DNA of 64,000 nt, from assembly GCA_036400935.1 (NCBI GenBank), contig DASWWW010000001.1, forward strand, positions 118,375 to 182,374, in the 5' to 3' direction. The notes under the pieces were generated by a model. That model was not told the DNA's origin. It ran no database searches and worked only from the letters and a program-made list of their open reading frames with translations. Origin of the DNA: Minisyncoccota bacterium (lineage in GTDB: Bacteria; Patescibacteriota; Minisyncoccia; Phycocordibacterales; UBA6065). This document shows, one piece after another, positions 4,745 to 60,024 of this stretch (within the stretch, counting starts at the first letter, position 1; the number at the start of each line of letters is the position of its first letter). The position numbers and the translations under genes were made by a program.

Positions 4745-5938
4745 ATGGCAGAATTTGCACGAACAAAGCCTCACGTAAACGTAGGAACCATCGGTCACGT
4801 CGACCACGGAAAGACTACGCTTACTACGGCTATTCTCGCGACTCAGGCTCGCGACGGTCTCGCAGTAGGTAAGGCATACGCCGACATTGCAAAGGGAGGT
4901 ACGGTCCGCGACGCATCTAAGGTCGTTACCATCTCTCTCGCGCACGTAGAGTACGAGTCAAACACTCGACACTACGCTCACATCGACGCCCCTGGTCACG
5001 CCGACTACATTAAGAACATGATTACCGGTGCCGCTCAGATGGACGGCGCTATCCTCGTGGTATCTGCGATTGACGGCCCAATGCCACAGACTCGAGAGCA
5101 TATCCTCCTCGCAAAGCAGGTTGGAGTGCCAAAGATCGTGGTTTTCCTCAACAAGTGCGACGCGGTAGAGGACAAGGATCTCATCGACCTCGTTGAGGGC
5201 GAAGTCCGAGACCTCCTCACCAAGTACGGCTACGACGGCGCAAACACTCCAGTTATCCGCGGATCGGCCCTCAAGGCCCTCGAAGCGGCTAACAACACCG
5301 ACGAGTGGGCAATGAAGGTCAAGGACCTCATGAACACTCTCGACTCTTACATCCCTATGCCAGAGCGAGCTACGGACAAGCCTTTCCTTATGCCTATCGA
5401 GGACATCTTCTCGATCGAAGGACGAGGAACCGTGGTTACGGGACGAATCGAGCGAGGACAGATCAAGGTCGGTGAGGAAGTCGAGATCATCGGTATCAAC
5501 CCGACATCAAAGACAACCATCACTGGTATCGAAATGTTCAACAAGCAGCTCCAGTCCGGTATGGCAGGAGACAACGCAGGACTCCTCCTCCGAGGTACTG
5601 CAAAGGACGCGGTTACTCGCGGACAGGTTCTCGCAAAGGCGGGATCTGTTACTCCTCACACAGAGTTCGAGGCTGAGGTTCTCATCCTCAAGAAGGAAGA
5701 GGGAGGCCGACATACCCCATTCTTCAACGGCTACAAGCCACAGTTCTACGTTCGAACTACGGACGTTACTGGTGAGGTAACCCTCGCCCCTGGAGTAGAG
5801 ATGGTTATGCCTGGAGATACCGTTACCTTCAAGGTAAAGCTCCACGCTCCTATCGCCCTTGAGGACAAGCAGCGCTTCGCTATCCGAGAAGGAGGCAAGA
5901 CTGTCGGAGCAGGCGTCGTAACCAAGATCATCGCGTAA
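4745..5938 (+). CDS. tuf: elongation factor Tu
   Basis: It has the [11 protein letters not shown]-loop, DCPGHADY and NKCD motifs over its full length, and an AGGAGG RBS. Confidence 0.97.
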
Positions 5939-6417: not shown

Positions 6418-8004
6418 ATGACTAAGAAAATCATCGTCTCGGCCCTTTTCGCAGCCGTACTCTTGGGCGGAGTCCAGAGAGCGGAAGCAATGTCTTTCTC
6501 GGAGCTTATTGAGTTTCTTATAAACGCCGGAATTATAGCGCAGAATAAGGCTGCCGAAGCTCGCGCGGCCATAGCCGTAGGCACGGGTCAGCAGTCGAAC
6601 TGCCATATGTTCAATTCGAACTTTGGGGTAGGGTCGGGCGGGCCGGACGTAGCCGCCTTGGGCAAGATCCTTGCCAAGGAGGGGCTGCGTAGCGTTGCTG
6701 GCAATTCCTATGATGAGGAAATGGCCGCTTCAGTCGTGAGCTTTCAGGCGCGCTACGGCATACCATCGACAGGATATGTTGGTCCGCTTACTAGGGCGCA
6801 TCTCAATCAGGTGTCGTGCTCGCCTGCGTCGAGCTCGAAATCTGCGCCAGCGGCCAGTTCGATCCCTGCTTCTGTTCCAGCAAAGCCGGCGGCCACTATC
6901 ATTTCCGCTCCGGTCGTGCTCGCGCCCGCGCCGGGCAGCGTTTGGGACGTAAACGGGAACTATACCGTCAAAATCCAGTTTCCATCGCAAGAATCGGGAA
7001 AAGTCGCGAAGCTTGGCCTAAGCATTTGCCCCGCAACATTTGGCAGCTGTTACATTTTGGAATCGTATGACTCGAGGCTGCCTCTCGGTCAGAATCCCAT
7101 AGCCGAAGTCCCATGGTCCTCGATCAGGGAAATGAATACGAGCATTGCTCCTGGAAAGTACAAGCTTGCCGTCGTCGTGAACGATTCCGATCACTACAAC
7201 AACATATCGGTTGATGGCGGGGAATTCACCGTGACCGGCAGCTTTACACGGCAGGCTTCGCAACAGCCGCAGCCTTCTGGTGACTCGAGCTCGATGGCAC
7301 AGGACTGGTCGGCAACGTCGTTTGTTGGATACTCTCTCGTGAGGGACCTTTCGATTGGTTCTTTGGGGCGCGACGTCGCAATCCTCCAGGATTTTCTTTG
7401 GACAAAATCTTTCTTGCAGATGAGTTCCGGCGTCGTGCACGGCTCTTTTGATCAGGCTACGGCCGATGCGCTTTCCAGGTACCAGGTTTCTGTTGGACTC
7501 TCAGCAAGCGGTTCCGTAGGATCTCTTACGAGGGCGTCTCTCAATACGGCTTTTACATCACAGGCCCCCAATTCTGTTGCCGTTCCCGCTTCAAATCCAG
7601 CAAGCAGTCCGATGCCGCAGGTGTCATGTCCTCAGTCCGTGAGTCTCCCGGGATTTACGCTCACCCTTGAGCCGTGTGAGATTGTTAATGCTTCCTTGAC
7701 CGACGAGCAAGGGGATTTGAAGTTCAAGGTAAGGATCACCGCGAGCGATCCGGGCGCTTCTTTTTCCTTCTATGCATCCTATGCCTCAACTGTCGGTTTT
7801 CCGCCCTATTCGGTTTTGATGGGATCGGGCGCCACTGTGGGCGGCGCAGAATTCGACCTGACTTTCGTTGAAGGTATGCTTTCGGCTAACGGATCTGAGC
7901 CGCGAACATATAGCGGCTATTTGCCAATAACCGTCCTCGATCCCAAGGAGAACAAAGCTTATCTTTATATGAGGCTCAACCTTACGGTAAATCCTGCGAA
8001 CTAG
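6418..8004 (+). CDS. secreted protein with two PG_binding_1 (peptidoglycan-binding) domains, inserted between rpsJ and rplC
   Basis: It has a signal peptide and a conserved N-terminal module (SFSELIEFLINAGIIAQNKAAEARAAI). It also has PG-binding-like segments (GPDVAALGKILAKEGL...GYVGPLTRAHL and GRDVAILQDFLW...VGSLTRASL). Confidence 0.75.
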   Translation: MTKKIIVSALFAAVLLGGVQRAEAMSFSELIEFLINAGIIAQNKAAEARAAIAVGTGQQSNCHMFNSNFGVGSGGPDVAALGKILAKEGLRSVAGNSYDEEMAASVVSFQARYGIPSTGYVGPLTRAHLNQVSCSPASSSKSAPAASSIPASVPAKPAATIISAPVVLAPAPGSVWDVNGNYTVKIQFPSQESGKVAKLGLSICPATFGSCYILESYDSRLPLGQNPIAEVPWSSIREMNTSIAPGKYKLAVVVNDSDHYNNISVDGGEFTVTGSFTRQASQQPQPSGDSSSMAQDWSATSFVGYSLVRDLSIGSLGRDVAILQDFLWTKSFLQMSSGVVHGSFDQATADALSRYQVSVGLSASGSVGSLTRASLNTAFTSQAPNSVAVPASNPASSPMPQVSCPQSVSLPGFTLTLEPCEIVNASLTDEQGDLKFKVRITASDPGASFSFYASYASTVGFPPYSVLMGSGATVGGAEFDLTFVEGMLSANGSEPRTYSGYLPITVLDPKENKAYLYMRLNLTVNPAN

Positions 8005-19948: not shown

Positions 19949-21220
19949 ATGAACGCATTCGTAAGCAAGGTTTCGCACATATTCCGCGACAAGAGCCTCC
20001 GAAAGAGGATTCTTTTCGTGGTTCTCGCCCTCGTGGTCTTCCGACTGCTCACCAATATCCCGATCCCAGGAATCGATACCGCGAAGCTCGCGAGCCTCTT
20101 TGCAGGCAGCCAGTTCCTCGGCCTCTTGAACGTCTTCTCCGGAGGCGGATTGGCGAACCTCTCGATCGTCATGCTTGGCGTCGGACCGTACATCACGGCT
20201 TCGATCATCATGCAGCTCCTCACCATCATGTCTCCTTCGATGAAGGCCATGTACCAGGAGGAGGGCGAGGCAGGCAGGGCGAAGTTCGCGCAGTACTCGC
20301 GCCGATTGGCTTTGCCTCTCGCATTGCTCCAGGCTTTCAGCTTCATCATCATCTTCCAGAAGCAGGGGATCATTCCTGACCTTACGCTCCTCTCGCTCAT
20401 CCTCAATGTTCTCGTGATCTCGGCCGGCTCGATGCTCCTCATGTGGATCGGCGAGCTCATTACCGAGTTCGGACTCGGGAACGGTACGTCCCTCATCATC
20501 TTCGCGGGTATCGTGGCGAGCCTTCCTCAGGGCATCCTCGGCGCATTCCAGGCATACGATCCTTCGCAGCTTCCTATCTATATCGGCGTTATCGCCCTCG
20601 CCCTCATCATCATCTACGCGGTCGTGGTGGTGACAGAGGCAGAGCGACCGATCCCTGTGACCTACGCAAAGCAGGTTCGCGGCATGAAGGTCTACGGCGG
20701 CGTCTCTACATACCTCCCGTTGCGCCTCAACCAGGCCGGAGTTATTCCGATCATCTTCGCTCTCTCTATCCTCCTTTTCCCTCAGATGATCTTCAACTTC
20801 TTCGCCGCTTCAGCTAACGCGACCCTCAACAGCATAGCAACGGTCGGCCTCGGTCTCCTCAACAATCATTGGTTCTATAACTCGTTCTATTTCCTCCTCG
20901 TATTCGTATTCACGTACTTCTACACGGCGGTCACGTTCGATCCGACCATGATCTCGGAGAATCTCCAGAAGTCCGGCGCATTCATCCCAGGCGTCCGACC
21001 AGGGCAGTCTACGGCCGAGCACCTCTCGAAGATCGTTACCCGAATCACACTCGTGGGCGCGCTCTTCCTCGGCATCATCGCGGTGCTTCCTCTCATTCTC
21101 AAGTCGGTCTCGGGCATTACCGCTATCGCGATCGGAGGAACGTCTCTCCTCATCGTGGTATCCGTAGTCCTCGATGTCGTAAAGAAGCTCGACGCGCAGC
21201 TGTCGATGCGGGAGTACTAA
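19949..21220 (+). CDS. secY: preprotein translocase subunit SecY
   Basis: It has 10 TM segments with SecY motifs. Confidence 0.95.
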   Translation: MNAFVSKVSHIFRDKSLRKRILFVVLALVVFRLLTNIPIPGIDTAKLASLFAGSQFLGLLNVFSGGGLANLSIVMLGVGPYITASIIMQLLTIMSPSMKAMYQEEGEAGRAKFAQYSRRLALPLALLQAFSFIIIFQKQGIIPDLTLLSLILNVLVISAGSMLLMWIGELITEFGLGNGTSLIIFAGIVASLPQGILGAFQAYDPSQLPIYIGVIALALIIIYAVVVVTEAERPIPVTYAKQVRGMKVYGGVSTYLPLRLNQAGVIPIIFALSILLFPQMIFNFFAASANATLNSIATVGLGLLNNHWFYNSFYFLLVFVFTYFYTAVTFDPTMISENLQKSGAFIPGVRPGQSTAEHLSKIVTRITLVGALFLGIIAVLPLILKSVSGITAIAIGGTSLLIVVSVVLDVVKKLDAQLSMREY

Positions 21221-38230: not shown

Positions 38231-39589
38231 ATGAAAAAGACCCTGCCTTTGATCGGTTTGTGCTCGCTCACGTTGGTTGCCGGAATGACTTTCTTTACGA
38301 GCGGCGACCCTGCGTCCGCAGCTATCGAGACCTGCGATGCTGGTTCCGACATGAGCTATCACCAGGCCAAGGAGGCTATGGCGAGCGGGGAGCTTTCCCT
38401 GACGTATAATCCCGATACGTCGGCAAACAGGGTAACGGTAAACATTCAGAACAACACTCCGTGCTCAGTGCCACTCAGCCTCAGCACCTATAGGATGTTC
38501 GGACCATACGATCCGGCCACCCAGTCCCAGCAGCAGTTCTATGCCGGCACGGGCGTTTTCAACGTAGCGGCAAACTCGGGAGCGACATTGGAGGCTGACA
38601 TTCCAACTTGCGCCGCTCAGTACGACGTATGGTATGGATCAGCCCCTCAGGTCATCCCTGACAACGAGGTCTATGGCAGCATCATGTTCGGCGATCATGT
38701 CCGACAGGATCAGTACTGCCAGCTTCCCCCAGCGACTCCGGTGACCGCGACCCTTTCGGCGAATGCGTCTTGCATCGTCCCTGGCGCGACCGTCCAATTC
38801 ACGGCTAATTTCGCGGGAGGCTCGATCGGCTCAAAGACCCTCGAGAAGGATACCAATGCCGATGGGGCATACGGCGAGGTTGCGTCATGGGGACCTGGGC
38901 CTGGAACTCATGTGTATACCGAGGTTACTGATGCGAACTATTCGGGAATCTATTCTGCTCGACTGATGGCGGACGGCACCGAGATCGTGCGGACGAATGT
39001 CACGGTTGACGCGTCGTGCGCGCCGGTCGTGCCGCCTCCCGTAGTCCCTCCGCCGGTCGCAGCTCCTATCACGGCGAACCTCGCTCCTGAATCCGTCTGC
39101 ATTGTCCCTGGCGCTGTCGTATCGTTCACCGCGAATGTGAATGGGGACGGCATCTCGTCGAAGACTTTGGAGAAGGATACCAATGCTGATGGGTCATTCG
39201 GCGAAGTCGTAGCCTGGGGAGCGGGTGCGGGCACTCATACATATACCGAGGGTCTCGACGCAAGCTACACGGGCGTCTACACCGCACGCCTCATGGTCAA
39301 CGGCAATGAGATGTCTCGCCAGAATGTGACAGTAGATACGGCCTGCGGACCGGCTGTAGTCGTTCCGCCTCCAGTAGTACCTCCGCCGCCAGTCGTCCCA
39401 CCTCCTGTCGTCCCTCCGCCAGAGCCGCCGATCGTCCCTACCAATACGGGAGACGGCCCGATCACTCCTCGCGGAGGCGGCAGCGGACGCAGCGGAGGAC
39501 GAAGCACTCCAGTTCAGCCGGTGGTCATAACTACAACTGATTTCGTTCCGGGCCTTCCTGATACCGGACTTCCTCCACGAAGGCGCTAA
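38231..39589 (+). CDS. secreted surface protein with two homologous Cys-bounded repeats, Pro-rich (PPPVVPPP) linkers and a C-terminal LPDTG motif that lacks a hydrophobic anchor
   Basis: It has a signal peptide. Two roughly 95 aa repeats (C.VPGA.V.FTAN..G..I.SKTLEKDTNADG.[FY]GEV..WG.G.GTH.YTE..DA.Y.G.Y.ARLM..G.E..R.NVTVD..C.P) match repeats in 1678..4524. The protein ends ...FVPGLPDTGLPPRRR. Confidence 0.75.
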   Translation: MKKTLPLIGLCSLTLVAGMTFFTSGDPASAAIETCDAGSDMSYHQAKEAMASGELSLTYNPDTSANRVTVNIQNNTPCSVPLSLSTYRMFGPYDPATQSQQQFYAGTGVFNVAANSGATLEADIPTCAAQYDVWYGSAPQVIPDNEVYGSIMFGDHVRQDQYCQLPPATPVTATLSANASCIVPGATVQFTANFAGGSIGSKTLEKDTNADGAYGEVASWGPGPGTHVYTEVTDANYSGIYSARLMADGTEIVRTNVTVDASCAPVVPPPVVPPPVAAPITANLAPESVCIVPGAVVSFTANVNGDGISSKTLEKDTNADGSFGEVVAWGAGAGTHTYTEGLDASYTGVYTARLMVNGNEMSRQNVTVDTACGPAVVVPPPVVPPPPVVPPPVVPPPEPPIVPTNTGDGPITPRGGGSGRSGGRSTPVQPVVITTTDFVPGLPDTGLPPRRR

Positions 39590-39600
39590 TATCACCTCCT

Positions 39601-40200
39601 ATGTCCAAGCTCTCATTAGGCGCTCTCATAGCTTTCATTATCCTGTGCGCCTTGTCGCCGATCGCCCTCTTCTTTATCGTGCCTCGCGCCAATGTCGAGG
39701 CGCGGGCCGCGACTGCGGTGACGGCGGCTATCGAAAAGCCGGCAGAGGAGATCGTGCGCGCCGAGCTTCCGTCCCGCATCCGCATCCCGCGATTGGGCAT
39801 CAATGCGCACCTCGAGCATGTCGGCATAAAGGCTGATGGCTCGCTCGACGCGCCAAAGGATCCGTTCAATGCGGCGTGGTTTGCCGGCGGCCCTCGCCCT
39901 GGCGAGATCGGCAGCGCCGTCATCGACGGCCATTACGGATGGATAGACGACGTGCCTGCGGTTTTCGACAACCTCAACTCGATCGTGAAAGGGGACAGGA
40001 TATACGTCATTGACGTCACGGGCTCGACTACGGCTTTCACGGTGACGGAAGTCCGCGTATTCGATAAGGATGCCGACGCCACGTCTGTATTCGTATCGAA
40101 TGACGGCAAAGCCCGCCTCAACCTGATTACCTGCGAGGGGGCGTGGAACGAGACGACTCAGAAGTACTCCGGACGGCTCGTAGTTTTCGCCGAAAAATAA
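39601..40200 (+). CDS. sortase (membrane-anchored transpeptidase)
   Basis: It has an N-terminal TM anchor, a catalytic His (VIDGHYG), a TLxTC-type Cys (NLITCEG) and a downstream Arg. Confidence 0.85.
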   Translation: MSKLSLGALIAFIILCALSPIALFFIVPRANVEARAATAVTAAIEKPAEEIVRAELPSRIRIPRLGINAHLEHVGIKADGSLDAPKDPFNAAWFAGGPRPGEIGSAVIDGHYGWIDDVPAVFDNLNSIVKGDRIYVIDVTGSTTAFTVTEVRVFDKDADATSVFVSNDGKARLNLITCEGAWNETTQKYSGRLVVFAEK

Positions 40201-40201
40201 T

Positions 40202-40993
40202 ATGTTCATCATTCCATTCTCAATGCCTATGTTCCCGCCGACCGAGCAGATAGCCTACTCGGAGATCCGCTCGCCATCGAGCGTGCCTCAGGGCTTGCCT
40301 GTGCGGCTGAAGATTCCCGATATCGGCGTCGATTCCTTGATCGAGGATGCTCTCGTTACTTCCGACGGACGCATGGATGTTCCTGCGGGATCAAAGAATG
40401 TCGCGTGGTACGCCCTTGGCCCAAAGCCGGGCGAAGTGGGGAGCGCCGTCATCGGCGGCCACTACGGCATCAGCAACGGCGTGAAATTCGTTTTCTATGA
40501 TCTCGACAAGCTCACTATCGGCGATATCGTGCAGGTCGTCGACGATAAGGGCGACATTCTGACATTCAAAGTCAGGGCAGTAAAATTGTACAAGCGCGAC
40601 GCCGACGCCACTGAGGTATTCACCTCGCGTGATGGCCTGGCGCACCTCAACGTGATTACCTGCGAGGGCGCATGGAATCAGAAGAACGGCACGTACGACG
40701 ACCGCCGCGTGGTATTTACCGACCTCGTGACCGAGGGCAAGGTAGCGGGCGCCGCAACCTCGAAGGCTGAGGTGTTTCCGCGAGAGCTGTCGCTCGGTAT
40801 GAGTGGATCGGACGTCGCGGCCCTCCAGCTTATCCTCGAGAACAAGGGTTTCCTGAAGATTCCGCCGGGCACGAAAAAAGGCTACTTCGGCGTGATGACC
40901 AAAGCAGCCCTTGTGACGTATCAGAGGATCGCGAGCCTGCCGGCGACCGGCTATTTCGGCCCGCTGACCAAGTCCAAGATGCTCGGACTCTAG
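40202..40993 (+). CDS. sortase-domain protein fused to a C-terminal PG_binding_1 domain; no N-terminal TM segment
   Basis: The sortase core (VIGGHYG...NVITCEG) is paralogous to 39601..40200. The C-terminal region (LSLGMSGSDVAALQLILENKGFL...GYFGPLTKSKM) is peptidoglycan-binding-like. Confidence 0.75.
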   Translation: MFIIPFSMPMFPPTEQIAYSEIRSPSSVPQGLPVRLKIPDIGVDSLIEDALVTSDGRMDVPAGSKNVAWYALGPKPGEVGSAVIGGHYGISNGVKFVFYDLDKLTIGDIVQVVDDKGDILTFKVRAVKLYKRDADATEVFTSRDGLAHLNVITCEGAWNQKNGTYDDRRVVFTDLVTEGKVAGAATSKAEVFPRELSLGMSGSDVAALQLILENKGFLKIPPGTKKGYFGVMTKAALVTYQRIASLPATGYFGPLTKSKMLGL

Positions 40994-40994
40994 A

Positions 40995-42662
40995 TTAGTG
41001 CTGGCTCTCCTCGTATTCGCTTATCCTGTCCACGCGAGCGCCGTCGTTTATGTCTTTCGTGACGGTTGCTTCGCCTCGGTAGAGGATTCGCGCTCCGTCG
41101 CTCGCTGTGGCGTCGATGGATTCGGACGCGTGGACCTTGATGGTCGATCCGTCTCGGGCGAGGGCTTTGACAGTCTTGGTCCTGAGGCTGCTCGCATCTA
41201 TGCGGCTGCCGTTCCACGCCTCGACCGTCGTCGAGGCGGCATTTCCAGTGATGGCGAGGTAAGAGCCTTCGGCAGCCTTGAGGCTGAGATTCGCCATATC
41301 GACGTTGACCTCTGCGTGAGAACCGTCGGTTATTTCGATAGAGAGCGGGCTTGCGCTCGAATATTTTGCCATGTCGAGGTTCGAACCGCTGCGTACCGTT
41401 ATCGCCGACATGTTCGGGACGGTCAGCGTGTACCGCGCTCGGCGATAGTCGCAGAAGACGCAGTTCTTTGCCTTTTCAGTGCTCTTGAAGGCAAGGGTCG
41501 AGCCGTCGACCGACGCTACGTATCGCTCGATGTCTACGGTTCGTCCCTCGGCGACGAGGCTCTGGATAGGTCCCTGAACGATAGTGACGTTTACGCCGCG
41601 ATCGATGACGAGGGAAGAGATCGGCGAGGAAAGGGGGATGGTCTCGGTGACCGACTTGTAGCGAGGATTCGTCTGGGTGTAGTCCGAGTATGACATGCCG
41701 GTACGGATGCCGAGGGCGCCGCCGATGACGAGCGAGAGGCACCATAGGCCGAGGAGGCCGAATCCGACCGACGAGCTGACGATGTTCTTCTTGCGCAGGA
41801 GCCCGATCGCGAAGATTAGGATGAAGACAAGGGGGATGATCAGCGCGAGGTATGCTGCGGCGATGAGGCCGTACGCGTGCGTCGTGCTCATGATGTCGGT
41901 GATAGGGAACTCGACGTACCGGTCGAGGGGCGATACGAAGATCGTCGCCGCGAATGTCGAGAGGGCGACCGCTCCGGCGAGCGCCCATATGGTCAGGATT
42001 ACCCCGAGGGTTACGCGGACGATCGGCACGATCCTCGCTCCTATGCCGTTAAGGATGGTTTGGATCATGGCGCCGAGCTTCTTGAAGAATCGCGCGAACT
42101 TGCTCTTGTCTACCTCCTGGAATTTCTCGCGCATAGTGTCGCTGAGGGTTTCCAGGTTGATAGGGCTGCCTGACATCTCGAGCTTTTGCGAAGGGGTCTT
42201 GGCCTCGGGGATCGCGATCCAGAGGATGAGGTAAATGACGATGCCGAATCCAGTCGAGAGGGTGAGGATGACGAAGAGGAGGCGTATCCAAAGGGCGTCG
42301 ATGCCGAAATATTTCGCTATGCCCGCCGACACTCCGCCGATGACGGCATTGTCGGTGTCGCGATAGAGCTTCTTCGCTCCGGCCTTTCGCTCTGCGCCCG
42401 TCGATTCCTCTCCGCCGAGGTCCTGGGCGAGGCCCATGGCCTTGATCACCGTATCTACCTCATTCATGGTGATTATCGCCTTGCCCGATTCGGTGAACTG
42501 CTCGGCGATGCGGCCCTCGATGTCGGCCACGATGTCGTCCTTGCCCTCGGTGTTCGCGAAATGCGCCCTCACGGATTCGAGATAGGCGGAAAGTCGATTG
42601 TACGCGTCCTCCTCTATGGTGAAGAGGGTTCGGGCGAGACTGATCTGTAGTGCTTTTTTCAT
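40995..42662 (-). CDS. PspC-domain membrane protein with a DUF1700-like N-terminal domain and a C-terminal DUF4097-like beta-helix (putative stress sensor/adhesin)
   Basis: It has the PspC motif (DNAVIGGVSAGIAKYFGIDALWIRLLFVILT), multiple TM segments and a C-terminal repetitive beta-rich domain. A PadR gene lies directly upstream. Confidence 0.7.
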   Translation of the reverse strand: MKKALQISLARTLFTIEEDAYNRLSAYLESVRAHFANTEGKDDIVADIEGRIAEQFTESGKAIITMNEVDTVIKAMGLAQDLGGEESTGAERKAGAKKLYRDTDNAVIGGVSAGIAKYFGIDALWIRLLFVILTLSTGFGIVIYLILWIAIPEAKTPSQKLEMSGSPINLETLSDTMREKFQEVDKSKFARFFKKLGAMIQTILNGIGARIVPIVRVTLGVILTIWALAGAVALSTFAATIFVSPLDRYVEFPITDIMSTTHAYGLIAAAYLALIIPLVFILIFAIGLLRKKNIVSSSVGFGLLGLWCLSLVIGGALGIRTGMSYSDYTQTNPRYKSVTETIPLSSPISSLVIDRGVNVTIVQGPIQSLVAEGRTVDIERYVASVDGSTLAFKSTEKAKNCVFCDYRRARYTLTVPNMSAITVRSGSNLDMAKYSSASPLSIEITDGSHAEVNVDMANLSLKAAEGSYLAITGNAASTTVEAWNGSRIDASSLRTKTVKALARDGSTIKVHASESIDATASDGARILYRGEATVTKDINDGARVDRISEYEESQH

Positions 42663-59934: not shown

Positions 59935-60024
59935 GGAGACGTGTCAGAGTGGTCGAACGTACCTCTTTGCTAAAGAGGCATACCCTTTAAAAAGGTATCG
60001 AGGGTTCGAATCCCTCCGTCTCCG
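59935..60024 (+). tRNA. tRNA-Ser (anticodon GCU) with a long variable arm
   Basis: The fold is acceptor GGAGACG/CGTCTCC, anticodon stem CCTCT/AGAGG with loop TTGCTAA, variable arm ATACC-CTTTAAAAA-GGTAT and T-arm GAGGG-TTCGAAT-CCCTC. Confidence 0.8.

Follow-up and report, generated by a model that had tools for sequence, protein, structure and literature searches.

A leaderless sortase with a C-terminal peptidoglycan-binding domain, apparently a truncated member of a membrane-anchored patescibacterial family

Introduction

To our knowledge, every sortase characterised so far acts on the outer side of the membrane, where a hydrophobic tail retains its substrates. The class F sortases (NF033748; actinobacterial SrtF type), which provide the best class model for the protein described here, are small single-domain barrels. 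Outside the sortases, YkuD/ErfK-type enzymes are soluble and extracytoplasmic and act on peptidoglycan without a membrane anchor, and endolysins have no signal peptide and gain access to the wall via another protein. The L,D-transpeptidases (YkuD/ErfK) likewise pair a cysteine transpeptidase with a PG_binding_1 domain (e.g., PDB 4lpq), and the closest solved PG_binding_1 domains are found in leaderless phage endolysins and SleB-type cortex hydrolases (6tci, 4fet, 3bkh). A sortase family is enriched in the CPR (Méheust et al. 2019, PMC6744442). In the literature, we found no description of sortase and PG_binding_1 fusions or of natural leaderless sortases.

Here, a stretch of 64,000 nucleotides from a Minisyncoccota bacterium (GCA_036400935.1, contig DASWWW010000001.1), referred to as the window, was analysed with a focus on a sortase that carries a C-terminal PG_binding_1 domain (sortase-PG). 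Its likeness to class F lies in a TCEG-type Cys motif, a downstream Arg and an LPxTG protein nearby; it differs from this class by a score of 114 bits, below the cutoff of 166, by the missing membrane anchor and by the extra PG_binding_1 domain. The L,D-transpeptidases differ from sortase-PG in their unrelated catalytic fold and their signal peptides. Nevertheless, sortase-PG may work most like such a soluble PG-domain transpeptidase of the YkuD type, a resemblance in the possible mode of action and not in membership. From the endolysins it is set apart by its catalytic domain, which is a sortase and not a hydrolase, and by its surroundings, which include neither a holin nor other phage features.

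Within the Patescibacteria, an unnamed family of TM-sortase-PG_binding_1 proteins (e.g., P0005, P0027 and P0047) is 55-64% identical to the window protein over 263 aa and is annotated in metagenome-assembled genomes (MAGs) only as 'sortase' or 'LPXTG-site transpeptidase'. The order of sortase and then PG_binding_1, the invariant His/Cys/Arg and the PG-binding residues are shared, and the neighbourhood of the anchored family also resembles that of the window, since a short TM sortase and LPxTG proteins are encoded close by. The window protein, however, has no N-terminal TM helix, carries other residues in place of the FGWK[YF]P..KFP and DPGG motifs and ends without the LPxT[G/A]-like motif, the 'LYATP.DGLIT' segment or the C-terminal TM. 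Sortase-PG is a rare variant, and what is unusual about it is the loss of the anchor, not the domain fusion.

Gene arrangement and reading frame

The following features of the window define the locus and its surroundings.

38231..39589, + strand: putative sortase substrate (the cargo), 452 aa, from open reading frame and translation
39554-39568, + strand: LPDTG motif of the cargo, with no hydrophobic domain after it
39601..40200, + strand: sortase 1, canonical class-F-like, 199 aa, with the N-terminal TM anchor MSKLSLGALIAFIILCALSPIALFFIVPR
40181..40183, + strand: TAG in frame with sortase-PG, from frame translation, 6 codons (18 nt) 5' of its ATG
40198-40200, + strand: stop codon TAA of sortase 1
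40202..40993, + strand: leaderless sortase and PG_binding_1 gene (sortase-PG), 263 aa, from open reading frame and translation
40995..42662, - strand: PspC/DUF2807 membrane protein (Pfam), convergent, syntenic in loci L065 and L057
45855..46248, - strand: tmRNA
49245..49318 and 59935..60024, + strand: tRNA genes

Cargo, sortase 1 and sortase-PG follow each other in the same order in the window and in GCA_964368565.1, with gaps of 11 nt and 1 nt in the window. A scan of the putative operon for promoters and terminators gave no evident internal promoter or terminator, and the PspC/DUF2807 gene is its downstream boundary, outside the system. Since EF-Tu (4745..5938) and SecY (19949..21220) are encoded in it, the window belongs to the core chromosome. 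The GC content across the sortase locus is even at approximately 51-62% (mostly 54-62%), with no sign of an island. Sortase 1 matches the Pfam Sortase model (1.3e-21) and the NCBIfam class_F_sortase model (126 bits), and its best mean Kyte-Doolittle hydropathy over 19 residues is 2.94. The cargo matches neither a Pfam nor an NCBIfam model; it begins with a signal peptide, contains two internal repeats and Pro/Val-rich spacers and ends in GLPDTGLPPRRR.

The ATG of sortase-PG is located 1 nt past the stop codon of sortase 1. No obvious Shine-Dalgarno sequence precedes it in the window; the ortholog has AGGA at that place. In-frame starts that would add a TM helix were searched for upstream and none was found: the TAG at 40181-40183, 5' of which additional in-frame stops follow, rules out such a start. 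The statement of the first-pass annotation that the protein has no N-terminal TM or signal-like segment therefore holds, with a best 19-residue hydropathy mean of at most 0.74 and a reading frame that is closed upstream. Moreover, the gene triad was assembled identically in at least six independent samples and is found in another MAG, so the arrangement is not an assembly or gene-calling artefact. The samples with this contig include SRR11449183.

Domains, fold and catalytic residues

40307..40729, + strand: Sortase catalytic beta-barrel, aa 36-176 (Pfam PF04203, family alignment, AlphaFold2, Foldseek)
40460-40462, + strand: catalytic His87 (VIGGHYG), from the family alignment
40661-40663, + strand: catalytic Cys154 (VITCEG), from the family alignment
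40703-40705, + strand: catalytic Arg168, from the family alignment
40802..40981, + strand: PG_binding_1 three-helix domain, aa 201-260 (Pfam PF01471, PDB profile matches, AlphaFold2)

In the HMM searches, sortase-PG scored above the cutoffs of both Pfam models, PF04203 for aa 36-176 (E 4e-18, 65.8 bits, cutoff 26.6) and PF01471 for aa 201-260 (E 3.9e-12, 46.6 bits, cutoff 23). In addition, a family profile matched the PG-binding domains of SleB and phage endolysins in the PDB (1e-7 to 1e-6), which bears out the C-terminal domain that had been proposed from the sequence. The protein stops 3 residues past this domain, and a C-terminal tail is absent. The His and Cys motifs pointed out earlier are present as well, and the 38-sequence family alignment shows no variation at His87, Cys154 or Arg168. 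With regard to classification, the best NCBIfam model is class_F_sortase (NF033748) with 114.1 bits, under its 166-bit cutoff, and the sortase domain is best described as class-F-like on the basis of this model score.

In an AlphaFold2 model built on the 38-sequence alignment (mean pLDDT 75.7), aa 35-177 form a beta-barrel and aa 200-262 a bundle of three helices. Within the barrel, the mean pLDDT of 10-residue blocks is mostly 75-93, with two blocks at 58-61, and the PG_binding_1 helices (203-214, 231-243 and 254-262) reach 88-96. The model gives no ordered structure for residues 1-31 or for the linker 179-188. Foldseek matched the model to solved sortases A, C, D and E with E values of approximately 1e-9 and TM(target) scores of 0.6-0.78. 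An LPATG sequence at aa 246-250, inside PG_binding_1, was considered as a sorting motif and rejected; it falls on the conserved GLP..G.FG consensus, and in the family alignment the same position varies among relatives (LPSSG, LPPVG).

The anchored family and the short clade

A homologue search with sortase-PG gave 488 matches, and Sortase and PG_binding_1 occurred together in all 120 of the matches listed. The fusion, which had been taken for an unusual architecture, is thus standard. Where named, the family members come from Patescibacteria MAGs, for example Paceibacterota, Liptonbacteria and Lloydbacteria. The anchored relatives usually comprise 360-400 aa, and the surplus length consists of the anchors. 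An N-terminal TM helix is present in 107 of the best 120 of the 488 matches and is followed by FGWK[YF]P..KFP, the class-F-like barrel, PG_binding_1, an LPxT[G/A]-like motif, a second TM and a basic tail. The C-terminal part of this order, with the segment 'K.LYATP.DGLITS' between motif and TM, occurs in 105 of the 119 members listed; P0064, P0080 and P0101 are anchored, yet without the C-terminal tail. The motif that these anchored proteins carry themselves (e.g., P0005; L002 6001..7101) reads LPSTA, LPNTG, LPNAG and others, and the conserved segment after it spans approximately 25 aa and leads into the TM and RR. Judging from this layout, the anchored proteins appear to have their own sorting-signal-like or pseudo-substrate tail.

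Among the family matches listed, only the window protein and its ortholog P0002 (MAG GCA_964368565.1, locus L001) are without both ends. P0002 has 263 aa, is 75% identical and stands in the same gene triad; both proteins lack the first approximately 50 residues with the TM as well as the entire C-terminal tail. No further leaderless member was found in the scan of genome contigs (52 loci, species-representative genomes), in the scan of JGI metagenome contigs (5 loci; the TM is present in the translated L060 and L062) or in a representative library of 1.84 billion proteins at 50% identity. Three candidates were rejected: an upstream TTG start of P0004 encodes a TM, and P0013 and P0102 begin inside the post-TM region and look like partial calls. 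Mis-called or partial sequences of this kind probably account for the relatives that seem to have no N-terminal TM. Surveyed across related genomes, the architecture pointed out by the first-pass annotation is therefore widespread as a fusion, but its leaderless form is confined to the window species and GCA_964368565.1; likewise, the missing membrane anchor is indeed unusual in this small clade, while the rest of the family is membrane-tethered.

In an outgroup-rooted neighbour-joining tree with 100 bootstraps, the short pair was monophyletic in 100/100 replicates and placed 11 nodes inside the ingroup root; it was basal to the rest in only 10/100. Because the short clade is nested within the anchored family, the loss of the anchor is derived. 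From alignment and tree, we infer that the window protein is a doubly truncated derivative of the anchored sortase-PG family. An origin as a duplicate of sortase 1 that acquired a PG domain was rejected, as the identity to sortase 1 is 44% versus 62-64% to the anchored family. With a mean identity of 61% versus 69 +/- 2%, the short clade diverges more than any other of the 119 members, which would fit a changed constraint after truncation. The window copy retains 116 of 134 strongly conserved family columns. The pair shares 14 changes at columns with at least 85% conservation in the other members. Seven of these belong to the N-terminal region ahead of the barrel: G3I, W4I/V, K5P and P7S/F alter the FGWK[YF]P segment, and D24S, G26S and G27S alter DPGG. 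The DPGG changes and P166D affect positions for which conservation in the rest of the family is 89-100%:

40271..40282: S24-S27, with D24S, G26S and G27S turning DPGG into SPSS in the window (SVSS in the ortholog)
40697..40699: D166, from P166D, two residues before the catalytic Arg168 and shared by the short pair

With regard to the origin of the short form, the usual gene order in the anchored relatives is a large LPxTG protein, a short TM sortase, a DUF11-like LPxTG protein of approximately 300 aa and the TM-sortase-PG protein. If everything between the 3' end of the short sortase gene and approximately codon 50 of sortase-PG were deleted, the exact arrangement of the window would result. 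The locus L065 (2641..4516) is syntenic with the window, with ZIP, cargo, an orthologous sortase 1 and the convergent PspC/DUF2807 gene; here, the PspC gene overlaps that of sortase 1 by 17 nt and no sortase-PG gene is present, so sortase-PG is dispensable in a related lineage. Given L065, an inserted partial copy in the window lineage could be an alternative to the local deletion, or the gene could have been lost in L065.

The N-terminus of the leaderless protein

40202..40240, + strand: derived hydrophobic, Pro-rich N-terminus MFIIPFSMPMFPP (hydropathy, pN/pS; disordered in the AlphaFold2 model)

The segment MFIIPFSMPMFPP stands where the sortase-PG family has its conserved FGWK[YF]P..KFP segment, and the two conserved Lys of the latter are replaced by Pro and Met in the window protein. 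The best 19-residue Kyte-Doolittle mean within the first 60 aa is 0.74, compared with 2.94 in sortase 1. The hydrophobic run extends over approximately 10 residues and is interrupted by two prolines; the segment does not have the length for a TM helix, and its prolines break it up too much to form one. A basic n-region is missing as well: no K/R occurs before residue 23, and with E15 and E21 the N-terminus carries a net negative charge. On these sequence features, a canonical export or anchor signal is judged to be absent from sortase-PG.

Nevertheless, the N-terminal hydrophobicity of the short clade is an outlier within the family. For the N-terminal 17-mer, the best 10-residue Kyte-Doolittle value is 1.72 in the window protein and 2.05 in the ortholog versus a family mean of 0.56 (sd 0.44, maximum 1.65). 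The start MFI[IV]PF.MPMFPP is common to both proteins, indicating that the truncation is older than the split of the two genomes and that selection acted on the truncated form.

Selection on the truncated gene

The selection analysis compared the window gene with its one ortholog (75% identity). Over the whole gene, pN was 0.15 and pS 0.79, with saturated synonymous sites, and the resulting pN/pS of 0.19 disfavours a pseudogene or relic. The sortase domain had the lowest pN/pS among the folded parts (0.13), followed by PG_binding_1 with 0.27. Codons 1-13 gave a pN of 0.08, a pS of 0.77 and a pN/pS of 0.10. As the first nine codons contain three synonymous and two conservative changes, translation starts at M1.

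Possible function and alternative explanations

With moderate confidence, we regard sortase-PG as a doubly truncated but functional family member that acts as a PG-tethered accessory transpeptidase. Cargo, sortase 1 and sortase-PG would form one operon, in which the translation of sortase-PG is presumably coupled to that of sortase 1. The product is predicted to be a cysteine transpeptidase still, and PG_binding_1 would hold it non-covalently on the peptidoglycan, where it might aid the membrane sortase as an accessory, either on the LPDTG cargo or on peptidoglycan stems. This function would require a non-canonical route to the wall. Secretion through a partner, suggested in the first-pass annotation, would be a hypothetical option, and the adjacent sortase 1, a Sec-type signal-anchor protein, is not able to move another folded protein over the membrane; the hydrophobic, Pro-rich N-terminus is the only sequence candidate for export and may be a makeshift targeting element.

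Less probable, although a serious competitor, is a cytoplasmic sortase-PG, which would either have taken up a new intracellular role or persist as an intact relic outside surface sorting. The lack of a canonical signal or TM and the net negative N-terminus would be expected of such a protein, and the missing gene at the syntenic L065 and the evolution of the lineage, which is faster than that of the family, point in the same direction. However, a pN/pS of 0.19 at saturated pS across both domains includes PG_binding_1, for which we know of no cytoplasmic ligand, and the catalytic triad was kept. The N-terminal segment, moreover, gained hydrophobicity rather than drifting, and its shared start argues for a truncation before the divergence of the two genomes and for subsequent selection on the truncated form.

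Membrane-independent sorting is a doubtful extension of the preferred reading. Here, an unanchored wall sortase would join tail-less cargo to mature peptidoglycan instead of lipid II and would be exported by a non-classical route that depends on its N-terminus. The reading draws on the cargo next to the leaderless sortase, whose putative sorting signal is unusual in having no membrane-retention segment. It is weakened by the same short cargo tail elsewhere: L063, L065 and L066 share the tail, and only a TM sortase follows, so that a strict tie between short cargo tail and leaderless sortase becomes less likely.

We also consider it improbable, even more so than membrane-independent sorting, that sortase-PG is a non-catalytic wall-binding paralog, an option raised in the first-pass annotation. 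The clade-specific changes, P166D close to the active site and those in the DPGG motif ahead of the barrel, would suit a loss of activity, but His87, Cys154 and Arg168 are intact, the strongly conserved columns are largely kept (116/134) and the purifying selection is strong, with its lowest pN/pS precisely in the sortase domain.

Very unlikely is a single TM-anchored double sortase, produced from sortase 1 and sortase-PG by programmed frameshifting at GAA-AAA-TAA-T-ATG. Stop and start are 1 nt apart and an A-run precedes the stop, as such a fusion would need; in the ortholog, however, the spacing is 2 nt (GAA TAA GC ATG) and the A-run is missing, so the signal is not conserved, and a +1 shift would be required in one genome and a -1/+2 shift in the other. 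Finally, an annotation or assembly artefact that hides a TM-encoding start upstream, as was the case for the seemingly leaderless P0004 with its TTG start, is scarcely credible for sortase-PG in light of the in-frame TAG 18 nt upstream, the stops beyond it and the same arrangement in independent assemblies and in a genome with a 75% identical copy.

A catalytically complete sortase that is under purifying selection without an export or anchor signal raises the question of whether membrane tethering is obligatory for sortases, all the more as it adjoins a cargo of the same cluster whose sorting signal likewise has no hydrophobic domain. Export of sortase-PG would imply a secretion route not yet recognised in Patescibacteria; without export, the protein would be a rare example of an extracytoplasmic enzyme fold that stays inside the cell. 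The immediate impact is modest, since the leaderless variant is known from only two uncultured genomes, which are close relatives, and since public data already contain many proteins with the parent architecture.

Cargo tails and further observations

Besides the window (39554..39589), short cargo tails are present in L001 (3988..5385), L063 (5001..6458), L065 (862..2634) and L066 (438..2309). Six of nine cargo family members end in a 'mini' sorting signal of the form LPxTG-[FYL][AP]P-R/K... without a hydrophobic domain, and the C-terminal ends are LPDTGLPPRRR in the window, LPDTGYAPRKR in the L001 ortholog, LPDTGLPPRNRGSVHR, YPNAGFAPRK and FPSTGFAPRWSK. The other three homologues keep a full signal of LPxTG, TM and basic residues. 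At each locus examined, a TM sortase gene is located directly 3' of the cargo gene.

The patescibacterial type of cluster was also encountered in records titled 'uncultured Gammaproteobacteria' or 'Pseudomonadales' (L007, L017, L020, L030, L033, L041-L043, L046, L047, L049 and L054), which are probably mislabelled TPA assemblies. The organism names on such MAG records are unreliable, including the 'Candidatus Saccharibacteria' given for the MAG of the ortholog, GCA_964368565.1.

Fusions of cargo and sortase occur as well. In L008 (2828..4999), one open reading frame of 723 aa joins a DUF11-like cargo in frame to a complete TM-sortase-PG_binding_1-tail protein, and the cargo half has a signal peptide, repeats, FPETG, a TM and a basic stretch. 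Long open reading frames of 693-739 aa that end in the sortase-PG region were found in L007, L017 and L019. Within the window itself, a second wall-binding protein of 528 aa is encoded at 6418..8004, which contains two PG_binding_1 repeats and no other Pfam domain.
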